DNA from: Sarea resinae
Lineage: Eukaryota
Direction: 5' to 3'
DNA length: 64,000 bases
NCBI GenBank assembly: GCA_026026165.1
Contig: JAPEUD010000023.1
Span: 62,001 to 126,000, forward strand
Shown here: piece after piece, positions 10,061-32,372 of the stretch
How the letters are laid out: each line of letters starts with the position of its first letter
How positions within the stretch are numbered: the first letter of the stretch is position 1
Program-made: the position numbers and the translations under genes
Notes under the pieces: generated by a model
The model's input: only the letters and a program-made list of their open reading frames with translations
Databases searched by the model: none
What the model was told of the DNA's origin: nothing

Positions 10061-10933
10061 TGTGAATCGAGTAGTCCAACGAAAGGATGCTGAGTGTTGT
10101 TGTGGTTGGGTCCAAGACTGAATTGATGATTACGATATTTACTTCCCCCAGTCTAAACGATTTGGTTTTCTCCAATTTACTACTGAGCTTCGAAATTTCT
10201 GAGTCCCAATGCTCTCAGCATCCTCTTCACTGCTACAATGCAATCACGATTTACAGTATACCTACCTTACACATCAAGCCTTTCAGTCTCAGTGAGAAAA
10301 TCAGTAGAAGCTGTCGCAAGTTCTTCGCTAAATTTGTTACAACGTCCATGGATCACAGCGCAAATTCTTTCTTCTGTTACGTTAGACTACAGCAAATTGG
10401 TACATTCCACATTCTGTCAAGTTCAGTTTGATTTCCTCGTTTATGAAGAAATAGAACCGAATTCAGTCTTGTATCGGGTTGCGTTGGTATGATGAATGTA
10501 TCGTGAATTATCCTACCTTATTTCCGTAGTCCATGGAGGCTAGTAAAAAATGCCCCTTCTTCCTCAGTGTTCGAGGAGGGGAGATCGAGAACGGAAGTGC
10601 TGTTCGCAAAGCTATGTATAGGGCGATGTGTAACTGAGCTTCCCTCAGATTCCTGATAATACCCTCTGAACTGGCGCAGTGAAGGATTCGTGAATCTGTG
10701 ACACACACAAGGAGAGGCTCAGGGCAAACAGACGTGAATGTCATGTTTGCACCATTTACATGGTTTGCGCCTGTTTGTATCAATCAAACGGGCCAGCTGG
10801 CTTACCCGTGACCTCTTGGCAAATCTTGGCATGACTTTTGCGACCCACCAAGCGAGCTGCTAAGCGAGCTGGGCAATCAGCATAAATACCGACCTCCCGC
10901 CCGCCTCTTCCTCTTCTTTTTTCTTTTCTCTTT

Positions 10934-11120
10934 AGCTCTCTTTGCCTTTTGGCTTAGATCAAGTGTAGTATCTGTTCTTTTCAGTTTAATCTCTGAAATG
11001 TCACTACGGTGACTTATTCGTGATTATACTTATTTTTAGACCTCGCGATGGAGTCACTGTGCTTGCGCAGCCTCCATTGCACAGTGTCACCGGTATTACA
11101 CTGCCTCCGGTTGACGCGAA
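10934..11120 (+). ncRNA. U2: U2 spliceosomal snRNA (3' end approximate)
   Basis: AGCTCTCTTTGCCTTTTGGCTTAGATCAAGTGTAGTATCTGTTCTTTTCAGTTTAATCTCTGAAA matches the conserved U2 5' domain, including the GTAGTA branch-pairing sequence; Sm site TATTTTTAG at about 11031; 3' stem-loop with TATTACACT loop. Confidence 0.96.
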
Positions 11121-11658
11121 CATACTTTTTCAACTTGCTCTTCGATATCATCGAGGACCTGAGGAAGAAGTCTTCTAGTAATTTAGTTTCATTCTAATAG
11201 AATAGACTTGTTATGATTTACTTGGTCTGTCTGTGCTCCGGTAGCTCTTTCGATAGTAGCTGGTTGTTCGCATGATTTTATCTGGATACAATAGATATGA
11301 AGCTTAGAATTTGGATTCCTTCCAATACGCAGTAGAGCTGCTAAAGATCATTTCGTACGGCAGAAATCCGGAAATCTTATCAGATCTCAGTGATTCAAGT
11401 GCAGTCCTCTGTACTTCGTAACTCGTACCACTTAGATACCGGAGGCGATAGATTAGGTCTTGACCCACGAAAGCCCTTGTCTATCCCACACCAAAAATGG
11501 GTCCTACAATGTGTATCCCGTGACCTCGATTTCCTGTCTGCCGCTCCACATCAAGTCGACGAGAGCCCTCATTACCACCGACAACAAACAGCAATTGCAA
11601 GTCTCCGCGCAGGATAATCACTTCTTTGCGCCCTCATCCTCCGACAACTCCGATCAAG

Positions 11659-20700: not shown

Positions 20701-22179
20701 TTGGCCGAGATCAGGTTGGGAAGACTTTACGCATAAGTCATGAATCCAAGCCTACCTTACTCTACTCGTAGAGTACGGAGTACTTCAGTCCATGGAGTGT
20801 ACTTGGCCGAGCAGATGTATCTACAGGAGGTATGAGGCATCCAATGACCGGGCTTGACGCCGCTCAGGGACAGGCAATGATACCATCTATGGATCGTCTT
20901 CTTACCTACTTCATAGCAGCACCTTAGTTGGCCAAAGCTCGCCCTCACCTGCCGGCCACGGGATGCCGCCGGCCAGTTTCTTCCAGGGCCGAGGGGCGCA
21001 GATGGCGCGGACCATCATGCTGGGGTTATGGCCATTAAAGTTGCCGAGGAAGGTAACGAGAGCCATCGACGTCAAAGGGATCAAAGCCGCTGCAATCCAT
21101 ATCTGCTGCATACTCGGAGTAGTACTCCAAGAGTCGATTGCGAGAGTATCTGGAGGTACCGTCGGCTATCCGCCCGCTCGTGCCTCGAGCTTACTGCGCA
21201 GTACTCTACTTCTAGTCTCTGTCTCAGAGTATCACATCTCACTTCAATCATGACCTATGCGAGGATGGCTGACGGCTGATTCACGCAGATGATGCATTGC
21301 TGATGGCATTATCAGGATCACCTAGCACTCGTCCGTTCGTCTCACCGTTAGGTTATAGATGTACGACGGTCCGATGTATCCATCCGACCGTCCGACTGCC
21401 TACCTTACCTACCTGCTCGAGATGGATCTTCATTCAATCAGTCAAGAGTACCTTACGTACTTCGTACTGCGCAGTATGAGCTTCGTGAGGATATGGGCAA
21501 AGGTAGGTAAGGTAGTGAGTTATTCGGCAGATCATGAAAGCCCCATTAGGTGTGTGTTCGGGGGCTTGAGACTACTCCGTACCTGCTAAGGTACCTTCTC
21601 TGAGGTACCTGCTCTACTGCTACGACTTCGTCATCCCGACTACTGCAGTACTCCGGAGTACATGTACTGAGTAAGGTACTGAGTACAAGCAACGCCCACC
21701 TGAAGGTGCTGCCACCGCAAGTAGGTAATAATCTAGACTTAGTGTAGTAGAGAGGTATGGATCGTAGATGACTGACCTTTCTGGTCTCGCCACATAATCT
21801 CTAGACAGATCTTCTTGCTTCCTCCTGTTGTCTTCTCTCTCTTTCTTATTTCTTTTTTCTTCCTTCTTCATTCTGTCTGATGTTCGTTGAACATACACTC
21901 AATAGCAATAATACATATATTCTTTAAGCCCCTTCGCCCTTCACGCTTGTGTCCATCGATTACCTATCCTCTGACAGCATCTCGCCTCCAATTCCGTCAA
22001 CGACGTAGCACGCTTAAAGCCGCCTTCTAGCTGCATCCTCAAACTCCGCTAGCTCCACCTTATCTATAGCCGCCAGCCTACTTGCTTCACCCATATCTGT
22101 CCTGCCAGCTCGACTTTGACTCGACTCATACCTACAACTCCCTCGCAGCATCACCAGAATCAAACATCACTTCTCCAAT

Positions 22180-22834: not shown

Positions 22835-23496
22835 TCCTTGGGTACGAGTTATCTACCTGGGACCGTCCGCAGCAGCCGCGTCAATCATTCAGGAAACTTT
22901 TTCTTCGTTGGTCTTCTACATAATGCGCATCTCCAAATCGATTTAGCCGGTATCGCGTTCGTCTTCTGCGCCTCTGCGGGAGTCAAGCAGTAGAGTAGTC
23001 GTCTTCAGTTCGGTTCTTCTACTGGGTTTTCATTGTTGGTTCCTGCCGAGCGGTTATGCTAGCCTTGGTGCTGGTTCTTTTGTTCGTGCCGATCTTGTCA
23101 TTCTCACTGGGCCGCCGTGGTCCATCTTTTGGCCAGTGTCGTTACTTCGGTCTGGCTGGGTCTAGCCATCGATTGGCTATATTAATGAATAAACATCACA
23201 TATGCCCCTCCACTATGACGAAGTAGTCGCTTTAATGTGATAGACTATTCTATTGTTCTCTGTGCGAAACACGGTTCTGAGTTCAAAGGGTGTCACCACT
23301 GACAGCTCCATCAGGTTCTTTTTACAAGTCCATGTTTGCTTAAGATTGCAAGTCAGATTACGTGAGAGTGTATGTGCATGTACAAGTACGCAAGTAGGTT
23401 GTGTGGTTGCTAATGTGAGACCAAGTCAGGTAGGTGGGTAAGGTAGGTAAGGTAGGTAAGGTAGGTATATATCCATCGTTAACATTTTTTTTCCTT

Positions 23497-23714
23497 CAAC
23501 AAGTGGGGTTGTGGCACAATCTCGGGGCGTTTGTTGGTTTACCATCAAAACTTCCTTATGGAAGTTGACGAATGTAGAGGTCCGAGAAAGAGGTCCTTCC
23601 CATGTACTTATGTGTAGAACGGGAGTTTCAGAGTTTCGTAGTCCCTCCTCCTCATGAAAACCCAACGGGGTTTTCGTAGGGTCCTCCACAAAAGAGGGGG
23701 GGCCTGAGCTTTTT
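23497..23714 (+). ncRNA. Putative RNA polymerase III-transcribed structured ncRNA, copy A (unknown family; start approximate)
   Basis: TATATAT 23466; A-box-like TGGCACAATCTCGG 23512-23525; hairpins with G-U pairs valid on + strand (AACTTCC-ttat-GGAAGTT; ATGAAAACCC-aacg-GGGTTTTCGT; GGGTCCTCC..GGGGGGCCT); CCTGAGC+T5 at 23703-23714; imperfect B box GTTCGATTTC at 23830; paralogous to the element at 31714-31910. Confidence 0.6.
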
Positions 23715-24048
23715 GCGAATCTTTTTGTTGTGCTTTTGCCGTTTGGGGAAGGAGCGCCCATCGACGACGGGTGGATACGAAAGGGTACTTGAGAGTATAA
23801 CCCACGAGGCGTGCCATGGAAGGATGCGAGTTCGATTTCTTGCTGAGGGCGACAAGGGATGTAGAGGTATTGCTTGATTATTCTTTTTTGTTGCTCATGC
23901 CATGCCATGTCATGCGCCCGCCAGAAAGATTCACTCTTCTTCCGCCTTCCAATTCTGCCACCGCCCCACCCGGAGCTGTACTAACATTCCAAAAGAGCCC
24001 GCTCTTCTCCGCTCAGCTTCTATTATACAATACCATGACACTGCTCAA

Positions 24049-25028
24049 TCAATCAAACCTTATCCGTTTCCCCTTGAGCACCGTCCCCCCTACAACCTTT
24101 CCAATGGCGTATCCGATATACGCCCCAGTCACGATAGTCACAGGCCATTTCTGCCATTCGCGATCCCTATTCCCGCCAAAGTCAGCACAGTTGCATTACT
24201 ACTGCACGGTAGTTCCGCGTCCTAGCCCGTCTATGGCCGACTCAACGGAACACTGCCAAACAATATGAGCTAGAATGACAACCTACCAATCAAGAGGTAT
24301 AGGCACGGCACCTGCCCAAGAGCCCACCAGCGCGCCCACGGCTCCGCCAAATACCTCGTCTAGGGGCAAGAGAGCTGACGCGACGGCGCGCCATGTTCCG
24401 CCGTCCACGCCGCGCGCGTAGATCAGGGGCAGAGTAGTGAGGAGGGACAGATGGGCGGAGAGCAGCAGCGTGTGCGGGATGTGCGTTGTTAGGGGCGAGC
24501 CAAAGAGAACCAGGATTGTGGCTAGGACCGGTGGCGATAAGAGCGTCGTTAGTGTTAATGAGAGGAGGGCTGACTGTGGCGGATAGATTATTAGCTATGG
24601 TGGTTTACCAGGCAGTATGGGAAGGGGTCAGATACGATTATGCGTGAGCCATAGACCGCGGCTGGGGATTTGTGGTGTCGACGTGCAGTCCCCTTGGCGC
24701 TGGAACTCTTCGAGGGCGAGGTTGCGCTCGTGGTATCTGTCGAGCCAGCCGCTGGAAGACAGATCACGGCATAGCTCAGCTGCAGAGCTGTGACGGGCAA
24801 GAGAGACTTCAGCAGCGCGGAGACTGGGTCTGCGACTAGCTGAGGGAAATTGTAGTAGAAGATGCTGAGGAGGACGAGAGGGTGAATTGCGGTGAAGGTC
24901 TGGGAGAGAGGAGTGGAGAGATGATCTATGTGCGGGATGGAGAGGGCCGGATCGGTGGTGGATTGGGGGGGTGTGGATGTTGCGGCCGCGGAGGGTTTGG
25001 ATTTCTTGGATAGGGAGCTGGATGCCAT
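24049..25028 (-). CDS. GPI11: GPI ethanolamine-phosphate transferase accessory subunit (PIG-F/Gpi11); 3 exons
   Basis: [25 protein letters not shown] and [27 protein letters not shown] signature across introns (first intron 24635-24574). Confidence 0.92.
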
Positions 25029-25365
25029 TGTCGGCGGCGTGGTACACAAGAGGCGGCTGGAGAAAGAAGAGGAGCGAAAGAGAGAGATGGGATTCGTCTT
25101 CCAGAGGCAGAAACGGCAGTTGTGATAGTACCCGTCGCTATGATATTTCCATGATTCTTTGGTCGCACGTCTGTCTGCGTTTGATATCGCGGACTTCGAC
25201 ATCACTTTCGCTACGTCGAGCACGCAGCACCAGTTGCGCCGTATCTACGGTGCGTCACCCGCGCCCAAAAATCCGGGGTTCGCGAATTCGCCGGAGCTTG
25301 AGCAGCAGCAATACTGGAGCTTCAATTTCAGTTCGAGCTCATCGCATCGAACAGAGCCATGGACA

Positions 25366-26741
25366 ATGCCACACAGCACCGCCAATAACACCGCTACTCG
25401 GGGTTCCGGCGCAGGTGCCGGAGTCGCTCCATCTCAGTCCCCTCAAGACTCACGCCAGTCTTCAGCCTCTACGACGACGTCTTCACGGCCGCCGCCACCA
25501 GCAACACCAGCGCCGGCGCATCGCGCAACGGGAAATAGATTTTCGATCCCCGCACCCCTCCGTCAGCTGTTCGATAGGTTTCCGTTGTTCACTTATCCTC
25601 CGAACGAGCTGCCCGTGTCAGAGAGAGAGACACGCCGAAGGAGGAAAGGGAAAGGCGGAGAGCATGCACTTTATGTGTTTACGACCGATGAGGACGCGGC
25701 GACGGGGACGCCGAGCTTTAATCCAGGATGTTTAAAGTGGCAGGTTAGTCCTTTCTTATCTCTTTTATCACGTCCAGTCTTTTCTCACCCGTCTTCTACT
25801 ACTTTATTGTCTTCCATCAGAGACAATATTTTGGACTCTCCCCTTCTAACGACGGCCATAGACATACCTCCACATGAGCCATATCCCCTTCACGACCATC
25901 CCATCCACCAACCATGCCTCCCCCACGGGATCCTTGCCATTTCTGCTCCCTTGTTCCCCATCTGCAAGCAAGTCCACAACCGCCCCCAAAGAAGACGCCC
26001 CGCCCTTCCCAATCCCAACAACCAAACTCCAGAAGTGGGCGCGCGACCAGCCTGCCCCAGCATCCGTGCCCGACGAACCCGAGACCGAGCGTTACGAGCC
26101 GTATCTCGCTCTGCTCGATCATAATATACGAAATGCATGGGTCAGTACTCTCTGCTCCCCCATCTCTGCCCTTCTTCTGTCCTTCTTTCCACTCTCAAAA
26201 CCCACAGGGTTCCGTTCCCACCACTGACCGGGTTTTGCGGAGGCCAATCCAGCTGCACACCCTCTACCTCTCACCCTTGAATGCGCATCTCCCAGCATCT
26301 CTATACATAACGCCAAGCACGACCTTCCCACCCCTCCGCACCCACCTCTCCCAATCCCTAGCCACGGCCGCCGAATCAGCGCTGCACACTCACCTCGGCC
26401 CCATCGTTGATATTGAAGCGCTCTACCGAGACGCAGAACTCGCGCTCGATGCCCTTGAGACTCTCCTTCAGACGCGAGGAGGCAAGGGAAATGACACAGA
26501 GAATACAGGACAGGCGCCCTGGTTCTTCTCTTCCCCACATCCCACATATTTCGATGCCGCCGTCTTCGCTTACACGCACCTGCTTCTCGACGAGGGCATG
26601 GGGTGGCGGGACACCCGGTTAGTGTCCGCGGTACGGAAGAAGACGGGCTTGGTCAAGCATAGGGAGAGGGTGCTAAGATTGTGCTATCCTGATCTAACCT
26701 ATAAAGGGCTTCAGGATCGATTGGAGGGACCGTCAATGTAA
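25366..26741 (+). CDS. SAM35: Mitochondrial outer membrane SAM complex subunit Sam35 (metaxin-like); exons 25366-25743, 25862-26140, 26253-26741
   Basis: FSIPAPLRQLFDRFPLFTYPPNELP, PSFNPGCLKWQ|TYL, NHASPTGSLPFLLP, and GST-like C-terminus PTYFDAAVFAYTHLLL. Confidence 0.87.
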
Positions 26742-27082
26742 TTGTATCATCATTGTTATCATGCTCATGATCTAGGAGGCGGGGCTACAGTGTATAGACT
26801 AGAGACGACTTGAACTGCTCAAAAATGCCACTCAATGACGACGCTGAGCAGCATGCATCCAGACCTCAAGTGTTCCGACTAACCCACAACCAAAGGAGAG
26901 AAGAAAGTTAAACGCAAGGGAAAAAAAGGTATCGCAAACGCTCGCTCCGGCAACATAAACAATCGTTGCCCCCCAACTGGAATCAAAGCCCTAAACACTC
27001 CCTGCCCTCCTTTCACCAGGACGACTTGTATGAATAGCGTGTCTCATCACCTCGACCCTGTCAGATCAGCATGGAACGACCA

Positions 27083-28262
27083 TCATGCACCTAGGTCCCC
27101 GACCAGATCCTCCACGTTACTCAGATAGCGCCCAAGAAGGGCTTGTTTCTCTTTCGTGGTGCGCGTGCCCTTGACACTCCCGCCATCACCTCCATAGCCA
27201 TTACCGGCATCGTACGTGGCACCCGTGGCGTCCACTACTGCCTTTGCCGCAGCTGATGCCGGCGACGCGGAAGCACTGGTCCGACTCATGGCGACGAGTT
27301 TACTCGGACTGCGCGCCAGATGCGGCGTTGGCGTAGTAGCGGCGGCGGCCGGATGGTGTTTGTCTCCACCTCCCGCTCCTGCGCGCCCTTGCTTGGCACC
27401 CGCTATAGAGGTAGGGGCTTCCGGCATGAGATAGAAATACAGGAACTCTAGTACTTTTCTCTTGACCTCTCGTGTCGTCTCGGCACGCTGTTTCAGCAGC
27501 GAGGTGACGGTGAGCAGGCCGTCTAGGGATTCAAAGGTGCGGGCATTTGCAGGAGTGTCGAGGAGGGCGGAGACGAGGGTCAGGAGCGTGTGGGATTGAA
27601 TTGCGGGTGGGTTTATGGGGTCGAGGAGGTCGAGGAGGAGCTGTATTATTTCCGAATTTGTCAGGGCGGATTTGGAAAAGAAGTTTTGGACCTAGAGTTA
27701 ATGGAGTACGTACGTTCATGTATATTTCGCGGCTGAAGAGGGAGCGCGAAGGGGGATGGATGAGTAATATGCCTTGGGTCAGGTCGAGTGTGGAGATGAT
27801 GAGGAGATCGTTCTGGCCGTCTGTGAGAGACGAGGTATCCGTTAGTGAGCGCTTGCCGGGTTGTCTAAGGACGATAACATACTGCTTCCTTTCCCGAGAA
27901 GTCGTTCCAGACATGATATCAAGCGGAGAGCCACTGAACCATGGCGTAGTGATCGTCAGCTTCTTCATTCTCGATGCGCACATCGCATGCCGAAAACATA
28001 TCCACTAACCGTTCCACTCAAAACCCTCCTGCAGCTTGAAGAATTCTCGAAATGCCGGATCGTCCTTCAGGGCGCTCAACTGCTTTGGCGACGCCGGCAC
28101 GTTGGCCGAGGAGCGCTTGTCCGGGGATGCGTGAGGTGCGGTCCTGGATCGCGCGAGGCAGATTTGCGCGAGGAGGCCTTCGATCTGGCGCAGCCCTTTG
28201 CGGATTTTACCGCCGTCGTACGAAGAGAGGTAGTCGAACGAGAGCGAAAGGAGCGCTTCCAT
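27083..28262 (-). CDS. cdc14: Septation initiation network protein Cdc14 (S. pombe-type, not the phosphatase); 4 exons
   Basis: MEALLSLSFDYLSS..KIRKGLRQIEGLLAQIC..DDPAFREFFKLQEGFEWN|VALRLI..GILLIHPPSRSLF..NARTFESLDGLLTV..LEFLYFYLMPE..EKQALLGRYLSNVEDLV. Confidence 0.88.
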
Positions 28263-29302
28263 CTTGTTTATGGTGCTCGTTGTTGTCTGCGTGCCCTTTC
28301 CTCTCTGCGAGCGGCTTACGGAATAGGTATCAGTGCCAGCAGTGCACTGGAGTGCTTGGAGGAGGAATAGCGCGTCGTCACATGAGCCTGGAGTTGAGTT
28401 GTGAGATTGGAGTCTTGTAAGGGAATTGGACGAGTCTTGTTGTTGTTCGTCTCGGTGTTGTCGGGGCGACACTAACGGGTAGGCGGTAGCAAGGGGCAGA
28501 ACGCACCCGAGGTCCTTAGACTCGATTCGGACAAGTAGAGATTGCCCTTCGGGGGGTCCTCAGTCAGATCACCGGCGATGATGAGGGGAAAGGGGAAGTG
28601 AGGAGCAACAGGCAGGCATCAAAAACATGGTATACATCTCTGGTTGAAATTGTAATGGTGATTGCATCGAGGAAGAAAAGAGAATCCCTCTGGAACAGGG
28701 GGAGGGAGAGAGATCTAGCATCTAGAGAGTAGCCAACGAGATGCAACGGTATGGGCGCTGGTCGAGAGACAGAAGGGGGGTGAGGGTGGTCTGGCTACTC
28801 TGAAGACATCAAGAACGGTTGACCATGTCTGTGATAGTTGAGGATCTTGATCGTGATCTTGATCTTGTTGATATCGTGGAGATGGACGGGCCGAATGGAG
28901 TCGAGTCGAGTCGACCGATCAATCTGATGTAGATAAGGTTTAGGGTGAGGGCGGCCCTCGATCGGATGGCGGCGGCAGACTGGCCCCGATGATCGCGGCC
29001 ACCAATCGCTCGAGAACTTGCGCAACGTTACGTTACGTACGAAGTACGCCAACCTCCACCCTCCACTCTCAACGGCATTATCACCACCATCACACCAATC
29101 ACCAACGGCACCCGCGCACTCGAGTCGTATGACCGCCAGAGGGTTATGAGCCTCAGTAGCTGGATATCATCGTCATCATCATCTTGTCGATTTATCACCA
29201 CCACCTCTGGATGAATAGTATATAACCGCTCGCCGGCCACCATCCACCATCCTCTAACCTCCATCCTTCATCGACCACTACGTATCATCTCCCACCACCA
29301 CC

Positions 29303-30631
29303 ATGGTCTCCGATAGTCTCAAATCCCCAAATGCCATTCCTCCCCGCACCAGCTCTACCGGCATCACCAACGGCACCGGTTATGCCACCAAACCGGTCCT
29401 CAAGCCCGTCCCGGAAGGCGACTGGTTAGCCCAAGGCAAGGCGCTGCACACGAATGCCACCACCACGATCCCTCCTGGTCTGGAGCCGTCGAGAACGATC
29501 GGCGATGATCTAGTTCATCAGACCCGCGCGACTTGGTCGCCCGAGAAAGAGAAGGTGAGAATGCCATCTCGTAGCCTGCGCCTTGTTTCCCCTCAGACCA
29601 GTAAAGCGACTGAAGGCTGACCCAGCCATCTCGACAAAGATTCTACTCGGCCCATATGATTATATGATCGGACACCCTGGCAAGGACATTCGCGCTCAGC
29701 TCATCGCCGCCTTCAATGCCTGGTTACAAGTACCGGAGGAAAGTCTCGCCGTCATAACCAAGGTCATTGGAATGCTCCACACGGCCTCGCTCCTGTAAGC
29801 ATCGCAATGAACCCGGCTCACGACGGCACTGACAATTTCCAGCATCGACGATGTCGAGGACTCCTCCATACTCCGCCGTGGCGTGCCCGTCGCCCACAGC
29901 ATCTTTGGCACCGCCCAAACTATCAACTCTGCAAATTACGTCTACTTCTATGCCCTGCGCGAACTACAACATCTCCAGAACCCAAAAGCGGTTGACATCT
30001 ATACAGAAGAGCTCATCAACCTGCACCGCGGACAGGGCATGGATCTGTTCTGGCGAGATACCCTCACGTGTCCCTCCGAGGATGATTATCTGGAGATGGT
30101 ATCCAACAAAACGGGCGGGCTATTCAGACTCGCAATCAAGCTCATGCAGGCAGAGAGCAGCTCCGACAAGTTTGTCTCTCCTTCATTGCATTGCAGCCAT
30201 TTATGCCTTTTTCATATCGAGTGCCATACTAAAAGTACCGCAGAGACTGCGTCCCCCTCGTCAACCTGATCGGTATGATCTTCCAAATCCGTGACGACTA
30301 CCTCAACCTCAGCAGCACAACCTATACCCACAACAAAGGTCTCTGCGAAGACCTCACCGAAGGCAAATTCTCCTTTCCTATCATCCACTCCATCCGCGCC
30401 GACCCCTCCAATCTCCAACTCGTCAATATCCTGAAACAGCGCACCCAGGACGACGAGGTGAAAAAATATGCCGTCAGCTACATGGAGCGCACGGGTAGCT
30501 TTGAGTATACGCGCAAGGTGCTAAGAAGTCTGGTGGAACGCGCGAAGGAGATGGTCGAAATGGTGGATGGGGGAATGGGGGCCGGCAGGGGTGTCGGAGC
30601 GATCTTGGAGAGGATCGGATTGGGAGATTAG
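29303..30631 (+). CDS. BTS1: Geranylgeranyl diphosphate synthase (al-3/BTS1 type); exons 29303-29554, 29640-29794, 29843-30169, 30244-30631
   Basis: PGKDIR, LHTASL|LIDDVED (first Asp-rich motif), [46 protein letters not shown]. Confidence 0.95.
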
Positions 30632-31713
30632 GCAGGGAAGTGAGCCGGCACATCTGGGGTATGGCTCTGGATTTGATATGGTCGAATTTTCGCTTTACAT
30701 CTTTGAACGAGATGATATCTATTCGGATCTTCCGACTTCGCTCTCACGTCGGGTACGAAGAGCTGGATCAGGCTCTCAACATTTTGCATCTCCTACTTCT
30801 CTATTCCAACGTCTCTGGCTGCGACTTTGGCTTCGGCCTTTGCCTTGGCAATGGCCACCACATGTTCCGGGATTTGTTTCGTTTGGGCGGCATTCATGCG
30901 GTGTTTTTTTCTCATCCATCTATCCATCTTCGGATGCAGGGCTCTTTTTCCTCGATATTTGATTTCATCTCCCTTTTGCCTTACGATTTCCATAAATTTC
31001 CTTTTTCATCTCATGTCTCTCACATCCCTCATACCTACCTACCTACCTATCTATGTAGCCTACGTATCCGTTGGGCTAAAACCGGACACGATGACCTATC
31101 TATCCGCTTCCTGCCCAAAACTCTTCGCTAGCTTGATTTACTCATTCTTCGCGAATCCGAAAAACATATAGCTGTGATCCTTTGGTCTCTCTTGTGCTAC
31201 AAACATGCTGATATGCTCCCCCTCACTCCGCTGTTGCGGAAACGGGGGAAAGGACGGCCTTGGGAGTAATTTATCTGATGGAATAGATCTTCAGCGATGA
31301 GCCACCCACCTCGAGGCAGATGAGTGATAGAGAGTGACTACCTACTCTAAGAGAGGGAGAGGAAGAGGGAGATCACTCTTTGAGGTTTGCGTGCGATACC
31401 CGTGCTCGTCACAGATAGGCTCGATGTGTGCCCGGGCACTGGATGGAATGGATGGTGTTCATTCGATAAGAATATACTACACTCCACTCGCGACAGGACA
31501 CCTGGACCGTCGTAAATCAAAATCCCGAGAGAAGATAAGAGAACAGGAAGACATTCCTGACGGGGATCGAACCCGGCCGCTGATAGTTAGCGGCGCGGGA
31601 TAGACTCCGACGGCGGGCCAGATGTAAACATGCCCCTTCTGAAAGAGGCAAAACATCAACACGCGCCTCCTGCAAACAGGCGGGGACACGAACACGCACC
31701 TCCCCTCACAGGC

Positions 31714-31910
31714 AAAAAGCTCAGGACTCTCGAGGAGTCCCTACCAAAACCTCTCGGTTTTCTACAGCTCGAGGCCCGGGGTCCTCTGCTTTTTCAGCGA
31801 AGCGTGGGTTCTAAGTTTTATAGCGGCGATCATAAGGGGGAGATGTTGAATTCCCCCGAAGACTCTGAGGAGACGAATCTCCCCGAGCTACGCCACGACA
31901 CCTGCTTGCG
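31714..31910 (-). ncRNA. Putative RNA polymerase III-transcribed structured ncRNA, copy B (unknown family; a longer form may extend to about 31548)
   Basis: Minus strand: ATATAT 31939-31934; canonical A box TGGCGTAGCTCGG 31895-31883; GGGGAGA-TTCG-TCTCCTC and AAAACC-GAGA-GGTTTT tetraloop hairpins; GGGACTC..GAGTCCT; CCTGAGC+T5 at 31725-31714; perfect B box GGTTCGATCC 31573-31564. Confidence 0.68.
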
Positions 31911-32372
31911 AAAGATGTACGTCCTAACTGAACATATATGCCTACATCCACACTCACACTCGCACACACAGCAGCACTCCTGCAGCGGCTCTCACTACAC
32001 GCTGGGTACCACATCCACAGCCACTCCTACCGCACGCACGCACTCATACATTAGCATTTTCTCGTATCCCTTGACAGATTGGTAATACGTAGTCATGCAT
32101 AAAGATTTCAAAGATCGGCAACATTTTCCTCGGAGCTTGATTGTCGGTCCATGGCGGACGGATATCTTAATTTCTTTTTTTTTGTTGTACAGTAGATAGA
32201 ACACAGTTATCTTGTTCGTTGGATACTAGATACGATAGAAAAGATTTTCGTGTGTAATTTGTTTTGTGGGCGGTTGACAGAACGACGAATCGAAGCCCTT
32301 GGCACACAGCATGTCAAAGCATTTTGATCCTTGATCATCCCTCGACAATGGCAGCACGCGCAGGACCGTCAT

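Follow-up and report, generated by a model that had tools for sequence, protein, structure and literature searches.

Two Diverged Paralogues of a Probable Structured RNA Family with Pol III-Type Gene Signals in Sarea resinae

What kind of gene, if any, lies behind two intergenic elements that stand about 8 kb apart on opposite strands of a Sarea resinae contig and are built on one plan? The elements, called A (23466-23839, + strand) and B (31939-31564, - strand), belong to a 64,000-nucleotide (nt) stretch of contig JAPEUD010000023.1 (positions 62,001 to 126,000, forward strand), which is the window analyzed here and whose numbering is used for all coordinates. A preliminary description of this stretch had proposed that A and B are diverged members of a multicopy family of noncoding RNAs that RNA polymerase III (Pol III) makes, with control elements arranged as in the yeast U6 gene. 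Our analysis establishes that A and B are true paralogues, and it makes it very probable that they represent a selected, structured RNA family. The fuller reading, in which they are two diverged paralogues of a multicopy structured noncoding RNA family of Pol III type with a U6-gene-like split promoter, we consider somewhat better than an even proposition.

Relatedness of Elements A and B

The likeness of A and B was tested segment by segment, with the score of each local alignment set against 500 shuffles. For the 3′ module, which consists of a hairpin (H3), a short joiner, and a second hairpin (H4) that runs into a conserved strand and a T-run, the score is 35 against 11.5 ± 2.2 for the shuffles, and it is reached by 0/500 of them. 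Two motifs in this module are confined to the two elements. The 14-mer CCTGAGCTTTTTGC has exactly two occurrences in the window, at 23703-23716 (+) and 31712-31725 (-), and GGTTTT(C/G)GTAGGG has exactly two sites, at 23669-23681 (+) and 31739-31751 (-). When a covariance model of the 3′ module was searched across the whole window with filters off, A and B were the sole matches, at 55.0 and 53.4 bits, and the next score was 8.9. Alignment and covariance model agree on the paralogy that had been claimed: A and B are true paralogues.

The proof of relatedness comes from the 3′ module and not from the promoter-like boxes. The TATA box and 5′ block taken alone give a marginal likeness, with a score that 35/500 shuffles reach, and the centre of the elements (~110 nt) shows no above-chance likeness between A and B (236/500). 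The placement and layout that the preliminary description gave for A and B held when both strands were read, since the parts follow in the same order, and so did its spacing from TATA box to A box; measured from the TATA box to the TGGC of the A-box-like block, it comes to 46 nt for A and 43 nt for B. Its claim of a layout shared over the full length fared unevenly, being firm for the 3′ module, marginal for the 5′ block, and lost beyond the T-run, as taken up below. The two elements converge, pointing toward each other with ~7.8 kb between them. Terminal inverted repeats of an 8.5-kb transposon were considered and rejected, A and B being far too diverged and other members of the family being tandem.

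Homologues and Conserved Pairing

Metagenome contigs were scanned with a pattern made from the two common motifs, the hairpin between them being left as a free gap. The scan gave 12 loci, of which 10 carry the full module and amount to five more distinct gene copies and one single-base variant, so that the proposed multicopy family gains further members. We refer to the kinds of homologue as T1 to T4 (Table 1), the third kind holding two tandem copies, T3a and T3b; the lengths of thymine runs are given in words. The other two loci, L008 and L009, were set aside as chance matches: they lack the partner strand, have a bacterial look, and score 22.2 and 14.0 bits, where the members score 53-75. 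Several features that the pattern did not request are nonetheless present in the homologues, namely the AAAAYC strand, the H4 hairpin, the 5′ CUYRG, a TATA-like box, and T-runs. A control scan with a looser pattern covered 185,579 prokaryote species by one genome each, 596 billion bases in all, and gave 102 matches against a chance expectation of ~130, which is a rough estimate for a pattern of 19 bases that has a gap 31 wide. No family member was found in this control; the AAAAYC partner is present in 0/102 matches, a possible H4 stem of at least five pairs in 8/102, and the 100 loci that were scored do not exceed 27.5 bits.

Base pairs were counted in eight sequences (A, B, T1, T2, T3a, the single-base variant of T3a, T3b, and T4), or seven units when the variant is excluded. 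A motif-anchored script was used for H3 and H4 because MAFFT misplaced the H3 5′ strand, and the formal covariation count covers H4 only. In H3, the AAAAYC strand pairs with GGUUUU in 8/8 sequences, with a stem of 6-9 base pairs (bp), a fifth pair that is C-G or U-G, and loops of AACG, GAGA, CCCC, AGUGC, CCAU, CCCU, or UCGA. In H4, both basal G-C pairs are constant, and the next four of the six pairs have been changed on both sides. Pair 3 occurs as U-A, A-U, G-C, and U-G; pair 4 as C-G and G-C; pair 5 as G-C, A-U, C-G, and U-A; and pair 6 as A-U, C-G, U-G, and G-U. Pairing is found in 95.8% of the H4 cells, compared with 69.6% in shuffled data, a level reached by 0/500 shuffles, and the covariation score is 0.708 versus 0.179. 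If the 3′ partner is displaced by one column in either direction, pairing falls to 63% and 50%. This covariation is not circular, because the search pattern placed no demand on the hairpin, which sat in its free gap. The H4 loop is CUCG, CACG, AACG, CUCGA, or longer in 6/7 units. With compensatory changes in H4 across the homologues, the earlier statement that the stems are kept while their sequence differs is upheld, and the case for a selected, structured RNA is a strong one.

G-U pairs occur in both hairpins: H3 contains U-G in T1, T2, T3a, and T3b, and H4 contains two U-G pairs in A and one G-U pair in T3b. As these are A-C mismatches on the opposite strand, they fit an RNA of the given strand. 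They bear directly on the idea that the signal acts in DNA and that no stable functional RNA is made, the elements being tRNA-relic TFIIIC or boundary sites or a Helitron-like hairpin end. Palindromes can be maintained as DNA, and the perfect B box of element B, which has no tRNA gene around it, resembles the extra-TFIIIC sites of yeast. The G-U pairs of H3 and H4, however, are mismatches in DNA as well as on the opposite strand, and the conserved module, 114-140 nt from the B box, does not coincide with it. For ends of one active element the copies have diverged far too much, the repeat list contains no terminal inverted repeats, and TATA box, T-run, and hairpins stand in gene-like order in 7/7 units. 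We give a purely DNA-level function little chance; a Helitron end was also considered as a candidate by itself and dropped.

The two ends of the RNA can be joined by a further stem, P1, in which the 5′ CUYRG and the 3′ CUGAG form 5/5 pairs in 6/6 units that have the 5′ block. Its 5′ strand is CUCGG in A and B, where the complementarity had been noted before and is confirmed, CUUGG in T1, T3a, and T3b, and CUUAG in T4. Forcing P1 costs 0 to 2.8 kcal/mol across the units folded, and from the counts and folds together the formation of this terminal stem is likely but not established. Hairpin H2 lies directly 3′ of P1 and has 7 bp with a GACG loop in T1 and 4 bp with a UACG or GAAA loop in T3a and T3b; that of B is listed in Table 1. 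A separate 5′ hairpin, GUCNN...NNGAC, begins T1, T2, T3a, and T3b (4/7 units), with its pairs 4 and 5 changed on both sides. It does not occur in A, B, or T4; A has a 5′ hairpin of its own, which both the minimum-energy fold and the centroid fold lengthen to 8 bp. The centre is free in length, so that the distance from the P1 5′ strand to the T-run ranges from 91 to 220 nt over the seven units, and the single size of about 200 nt that had been proposed has to be given up. No 8- or 9-mer, at one mismatch or fewer, is shared by the centres of at least 6/7 units, and a likeness among centres noticed by eye, AACC.ACGC, failed in the motif search.

Some of the homologues have peculiarities of their own. 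In the minimum-energy folds of T1 (L001) and T3b (L004), P1 and the first half of H2 pair with the second half of H4 and P1 to give a long rod; the 5′ halves of H2 and H4 are similar, which makes a two-state fold possible in these units. T4 (L005, - strand) contains a 12-nt long-range complement that crosses P1 and may form a pseudoknot or an alternative fold. The same unit has repeated UUCGAC words, and intragenic A-box-like and B-box-like motifs ~85 nt apart are followed in it by a second TATATATA stretch. T2, whose H4 lies at L002 510-524 (-), is without the 5′ CUYRG block and has repeated CGACUAC-like words in its centre. The tandem copies T3a and T3b (L004 501-862, -; L011 484-831, +) have ~35 nt upstream in common, a stretch that takes in the TATA box. 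The 5′ motif recurs twice as an orphan, as TAGCTTGGGG past the T3a terminator between the tandem copies and as TAGCTTTTGG past the second copy.

Table 1. Features of elements A and B in window coordinates, and kinds and B boxes of the metagenome homologues
Feature	Position or locus	Strand	Basis or remark
A TATA-like box, TATATAT	23466-23472	+	Read from sequence; 55 nt 5′ of P1 5′ strand
A run of eight T	23485-23492	+	Between TATA box and predicted start
A predicted primary transcript, ~220 nt	23494-23714	+	Start ~28 nt after TATA by analogy with T3a, T3b; end is the run of five T
A 5′ hairpin, 5 bp, loop GGC	23508-23520	+	Ends 1 nt before P1
A A-box-like block, TGGCACAATCTCGG	23512-23525	+	Contains P1 5′ strand CTCGG, 23521-23525
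A hairpin H3, AAAACCC / GGGUUUU, loop AACG	23657-23674	+	Pair count, covariance model
A joiner CGUAG, H3 to H4	23675-23679	+	First position G in B, U in one metagenome copy
A hairpin H4, 8 bp including two U-G	23680-23704	+	Last C (23704) assignable to H4 or P1
A P1 3′ strand, CUGAG	23704-23708	+	5/5 pairs with 23521-23525
A run of five T, putative Pol III terminator	23710-23714	+	Back-up T-runs 23722-23726, 23734-23737
A weak B-box-like motif, AGTTCGATTTC	23829-23839	+	114 nt past run of five T; 2 mismatches to GGTTCGANNCC
B TATA-like box, CATATAT	31934-31940	-	Read from sequence
B predicted primary transcript, ~198 nt	31714-31911	-	Start placed ~28 nt after TATA; end is the run of five T
B A-box-like block, TGGCGTAGCTCGG	31883-31895	-	Contains P1 5′ strand CTCGG, 31883-31887
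B hairpin H2, 7 bp, UUCG loop	31867-31884	-	Adjoins P1; minimum-energy and centroid folds
B hairpin H3, AAAACC / GGUUUU, loop GAGA	31746-31761	-	Pair count, covariance model
B joiner GGUAG	31741-31745	-	Motif search, pair count
B hairpin H4, 6 bp, loop CUCGA	31724-31740	-	Both bases of pairs 3 and 5 changed relative to A
B P1 3′ strand, CUGAG	31720-31724	-	5/5 pairs
B run of five T, putative Pol III terminator	31714-31718	-	Sole back-up run, four T, 61 nt downstream
B perfect B box, GGTTCGATCCC	31563-31573	-	140 nt past run of five T
T1, homologue kind	L001, L006, L012		Metagenome
T2, homologue kind	L002, L003		Metagenome
T3 (T3a, T3b), homologue kind	L004, L011		Metagenome; two tandem copies each, 309 and 295 nt apart
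T4, homologue kind	L005, L007, L010		Metagenome
T1 B box			1 mismatch; 43 nt past T-run
T2 B box, GGTTCGAGTCC			Perfect; inside H4
T4 B box			1 mismatch; intragenic, 150 nt before T-run end

Pol III-Type Gene Signals

The U6 gene of Saccharomyces cerevisiae, SNR6, has a TATA box upstream, an A box within the gene, an oligo-T terminator, and a B box downstream. A and B resemble it in having a TATA-like box, a putative early A box, an oligo-T run, and, ~115-140 bp past the terminator, a B box that is perfect in B and weak in A, at the distances given in the preliminary description. They differ from it in that their product is not U6, as it has no model match and no U6 core, and in that the place of the B box varies within the family. 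The boxes were scanned ungapped against consensus sequences, GGTTCGANNCC for the B box and TRGCNNAGTGG for the A box with at most two mismatches. The blocks TGGCACAATCTCGG and TGGCGTAGCTCGG resemble the A-box consensus only when 1-3 nt are inserted; for TGGCACAATCTCGG an insertion is required, and the ungapped scan gives only an off-register match in A.

The first T-run has five thymines in A, B, and T2 and four in T1, T3a, T3b, and T4, and back-up runs of four or more thymines lie within 70 nt downstream in 7/7 units. In T3a and T3b the TATA box stands 27-29 nt before the conserved 5′ hairpin. In A, the run of eight thymines 3′ of the TATA box means that a Pol III start would have to lie further downstream, which fits a start near 23494. 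The TATA-like box, the run of five thymines, the back-up runs, and the perfect downstream B box of B are together consistent with an SNR6-type Pol III gene, and from these signals in the sequence we infer that the family is probably transcribed by Pol III. Of the promoter set proposed earlier, the TATA-like box, the putative terminator, and the downstream B box of B are present in the sequence, and the A box and the B box of A are weak.

The same TATA box, at about -28, could instead serve RNA polymerase II (Pol II) in genes of the small nuclear or small nucleolar RNA type, in which the role of GCUUUU(U)GC would be that of an Sm- or Lsm-like site. The bases that flank the U-run are conserved in a way that a mere terminator does not need (the base after the run is G in 7/7 units and the next is C in 6/7), and the four internal thymines of H3 are awkward for Pol III. 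Past the U-run, however, there is no hairpin or other conserved sequence, and the run is preceded by C, not by A, unlike in the Sm consensus. Back-up T-runs are present in 7/7 units, and B boxes are present at one mismatch or fewer in 4/7 (B, T1, T2, and T4), that of A having two mismatches. No box C/D or H/ACA family came near its gathering cutoff. We consider Pol II genes of this type very improbable.

The arrangement of these signals also decides how much weight can be given to a tRNA-derived short interspersed nuclear element (SINE), or a retroposed or decaying repeat without function, which the preliminary description had kept as an option. Fungal SINEs of this origin and the present family have in common an A-box-like, tRNA-related 5′ block, a multicopy state, and both orientations; two copies lie 8 kb apart in the window and tandems occur in L004 and L011, T2 has a T-arm (see below), and the orphan TAGCTTGGGG lies past the T3a terminator. 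The putative promoter parts of the A/B family, by contrast, lie outside the transcribed unit: a TATA box upstream and a B box past the T-run could not be copied by retroposition, yet this layout is common to A and B, and the ~35 nt that T3a and T3b have in common lie upstream of the start. Each unit finishes with a T-run instead of a tail rich in A or made of simple repeats. Their centres are very diverged, whereas two short motifs are identical and the pairing of H4 is kept by changes on both sides, which argues for selection and not for decay. The repeat list shows no flanking direct repeats around A and B, although short target-site duplications were not specifically searched. A nonfunctional repeat is thus disfavored, and we regard it as improbable.

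A second option of the preliminary description, a precursor of microRNA-like RNAs (milRNAs), is not supported by the folds of A and B, in which no long Dicer-type hairpin is found, and it was rejected. According to the description in PMC3547838, milRNA loci of Neurospora crassa are intergenic and are transcribed by Pol III from unconventional TATA-dependent promoters, and some of them are tied to tRNA and to RNase Z processing. A and B differ from the loci so described in lacking the long hairpin, a comparison made by description.

Several observations weigh against a Pol III-transcribed family of structured RNAs with a split promoter, and they concern the sample, the structure, and the promoter in turn. 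All homologues come from one metagenome assembly series and maybe from few, putatively fungal organisms. The invariance of the two motifs among them is by construction, as the pattern fixed the motifs, and T3a, its variant, and T3b are close relatives that make up 3/8 rows of the covariation count. Whole-RNA folds are not unusually stable, with z of -1.70 for A and -0.90 for B. The changes in P1 are one-sided only (C-G to U-G, G-U to A-U), and T2 has no 5′ partner. In A, forcing P1 lies 1.6 kcal/mol above the minimum-energy fold, with an internal CCGAGA as rival partner; in B it costs 2.4 kcal/mol, the rivals being GAGU just 3′ of H2 and an internal CGAGCU. A match to the B box with two mismatches, such as AGTTCGATTTC in A, is expected ~0.27 times per 200 nt and is not significant alone, and the sequence scanned for T3a and T3b contains no B box with one mismatch or fewer. 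The ungapped A-box scan, at up to two mismatches, finds none at the expected place in B, T1, T3a, and T3b. The sequence past the T-run, which includes the place of the downstream B box, has no above-chance likeness between A and B (151/500 shuffles). Lastly, the GGTTTT of H3 contains four thymines, as many as the presumed terminator in 4/7 members, so that either a run of four does not terminate here, and the true ends are at back-up runs of five, or context matters.

Two side observations concern sequence next to the promoter-like boxes. Short tandem repeats of the AGGTAGGTA type at 23432-23467 (+) abut the TATA box of A, and inverted relatives of them are found 2 kb off at 21399-21414 and 21501-21518. 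The stretch 31575-31603 (-), which adjoins the B box of B, could by eye form a 5-bp stem with a 7-nt loop; this stem and the T-arm-like B box resemble the 3′ two-thirds of a decayed tRNA gene, for which no tool gave a match.

Known Families and a Possible tRNA Origin

Does the family already have a name? Rfam 15 (4227 families) was run at gathering score and then at permissive expectation-value (E) cutoffs. At gathering score, the window has no match beyond one U2 small nuclear RNA (snRNA). At E up to 10, A and B gave sub-threshold noise only, made up of microRNA and bacterial motifs, and at E up to 1 four homologue loci likewise gave noise only; the best sub-threshold match, to mir-H1, has 25.2 bits where the gathering score is 97. 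There is no Rfam 15 match to U6, signal recognition particle (SRP) RNA, RNase P/MRP, 5S rRNA, Y RNA, vault RNA, 7SK, or the Afu noncoding RNA families, and none of the box C/D or H/ACA families is near its gathering cutoff in the scans of A, B, and the homologue loci. ARAGORN finds no gene for tRNA or transfer-messenger RNA (tmRNA) in the window and none in eight homologue loci, and the Rfam tRNA model has no match at E up to 10 on A, B, and T2. The absence of a known family from A and B, which had been put forward from reading alone, is thus borne out by Rfam and by ARAGORN. The A/B family is apparently unnamed in Rfam 15, and we found no description of it in the literature, where the alignments of PMC8216456 and PMC5640933, possible holders of the motif, were not compared. 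Both papers report comparative screens for structured RNAs in fungi. The 'intergenic structure 2' of PMC8216456 (Gao, Jones, and Rivas 2021) is described there as occurring in Pezizomycotina with a mean length of 144 nt and 223 sequences in 207 genomes. This near single-copy state speaks against its identity with the A/B family, the two having been compared by description only.

A highly diverged known RNA could in principle have been missed by these models, whether SRP RNA, RNase P/MRP RNA, a U6 or U3 that contains introns, or another RNA of the spliceosome or nucleolus. In fungi, small RNAs can diverge strongly or be split by introns, and 5′ hairpins combined with a long-range stem to the 3′ end are loosely like the SRP Alu domain or U3. 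The scans nevertheless gave only U2 at gathering score and otherwise noise. Members are as short as 91 nt from the P1 5′ strand to the T-run, or ~150 nt with the 5′ hairpins, which falls short of the size of an SRP, RNase P, or RNase MRP RNA, and several diverged copies per genome are unlike these single-copy RNAs. We see very little chance that the family is one of them. Specific candidates were tried and rejected as well: an intron-bearing U6 for want of core motifs, and a box C/D RNA because the CUGA at the 3′ end has no C box beside the 5′ strand to go with it. A telomerase-like template and hammerhead or other ribozyme cores were considered and dropped, and as a guide for the U2 snRNA of the window the elements offer nothing notable, with complementarity in runs of at most 9 nt even when G-U pairs are counted.

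The U2 gene is full length (10932-11125, +; 156.6 bits, E 1.6e-32 in Rfam 15). Open reading frames (ORFs) of the window match an AN1/ubiquitin-like protein and the Pfam families PIG-F, SAM35, Cdc14 SIN component, polyprenyl (geranylgeranyl-type) synthetase, and Methyltransf_34; together with the U2 snRNA and the intron-like splitting of ORFs, they give the window the look of a filamentous fungus. A is flanked by the AN1/ubiquitin-like and PIG-F genes, and B by the genes for the polyprenyl synthetase and the methyltransferase. Two of the genes between A and B, for the Cdc14 SIN component (27083-28559, -) and the polyprenyl synthetase (29258-30631, +), appear as several ORF fragments, as for introns.

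The preliminary description saw no tRNA relation in A or B, and this view was revised after inspection of T2. Its H4 is GGGG-UUCGAGU-CCCC, a canonical T-arm that contains a perfect B box; in local alignment, the mascRNA and tmRNA models place their T-arm segments on it, at E values of 3.6 and 0.63 that are not significant alone. A T-arm with the T-loop/B-box consensus occurs only in T2 and is absent from A and B, where H4 beyond the stem reads ACAAAAGAG and CUCGA, respectively. H4 is continuous with the P1 3′ strand, and P1 (5-7 pairs) and H4 (5-8 pairs) would give ~11-13 stacked pairs. In tRNA, the acceptor stem and the T-arm give 7 + 5, or 12, stacked pairs. As in tRNA, class II tRNA, and mascRNA, the T-run of the family comes just past the terminal stem, and the long H3 precedes H4 where the extra arm of a class II tRNA stands. 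Unlike tRNAs, A and B are not found by ARAGORN or by the Rfam tRNA model and have no T-loop and no recognizable anticodon arm, and in the family the terminal stem comes after 5′ hairpins, with an estimated length of ~150 to 290 nt for the predicted transcripts. The T-arm and B box of T2, the P1-H4 stack, H3 at the place of the extra arm, and the A-box-like block at the border of P1 and H2 together point to tRNA descent. On these features of the sequence, we put the chance that the A/B family descends from a tRNA gene at about even.

The Y RNAs and vault RNAs of animals are clustered Pol III paralogues, and the present family shares with them the small clusters of diverged paralogues, the paired conserved ends around a free centre, and the 3′ U-tail. 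It differs in that none of the Rfam models Y_RNA, Vault, and sbRNA matches it, in having a P1 that excludes the very 5′ end, and in its promoter type. Neither Y RNAs nor vault RNAs are known from filamentous fungi.

The features above suggest to us how such a gene and its product may be built. A TATA-like box would lie ~28 nt before the start, followed by one or two short 5′ hairpins. P1 (CUYRG/CUGAG, 5 bp) would close a multihelix junction, with H2 directly after its 5′ strand and a fast-evolving centre whose length is very different from copy to copy. The conserved 3′ module would then follow, with H3 (AAAAYC/GGUUUU), the joiner NGUAG, H4 running into the P1 3′ strand, and four or five thymines. 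The B box would have its place past the terminator (A, B, and T1), in mid-gene (T4), or inside H4 as a T-arm (T2). P1 on H4 (11-13 bp) may mimic the acceptor/T-arm stack of tRNA, so that the U-tailed RNA might be handled by tRNA-type factors such as La, and RNase P and RNase Z may be among them. A dedicated protein might bind the invariant H3-GUAG-H4 junction, and the variable centre might give each paralogue its own specificity. A role of the family as a tRNA-like scaffold to which a dedicated protein binds is speculative and, in our estimate, unlikely.

On a broader and still tentative view, which we think rather less than probable, the family would be an old and hitherto undescribed, tRNA-descended class of Pol III RNAs of filamentous fungi. 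In it the T-arm would have become a plain hairpin and the B box would have been displaced differently in each paralogue; the RNA would be a tRNA mimic with a protein-binding junction, and the centre would hold the target of the individual paralogue. If this were true, the paralogues would be living intermediates between an internal, tRNA-type promoter and a split promoter of the SNR6 type.

Few Pol III products are known from fungi, and their list is made up of tRNAs, 5S rRNA, U6, SRP RNA, the RNA of RNase P, and some others. If the A/B family is transcribed, it would add one more conserved structured family to this list, with several diverged copies per genome, and one that is invisible to standard annotation by Rfam 15 and tRNA finders. 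It would also show the B box in a T-arm, in mid-gene, and past the terminator, and would thus offer a testable path from a tRNA gene to a U6-type promoter. The strictly conserved 3′ module provides a handle both for the search for a protein partner and for a covariance-model census of fungi.

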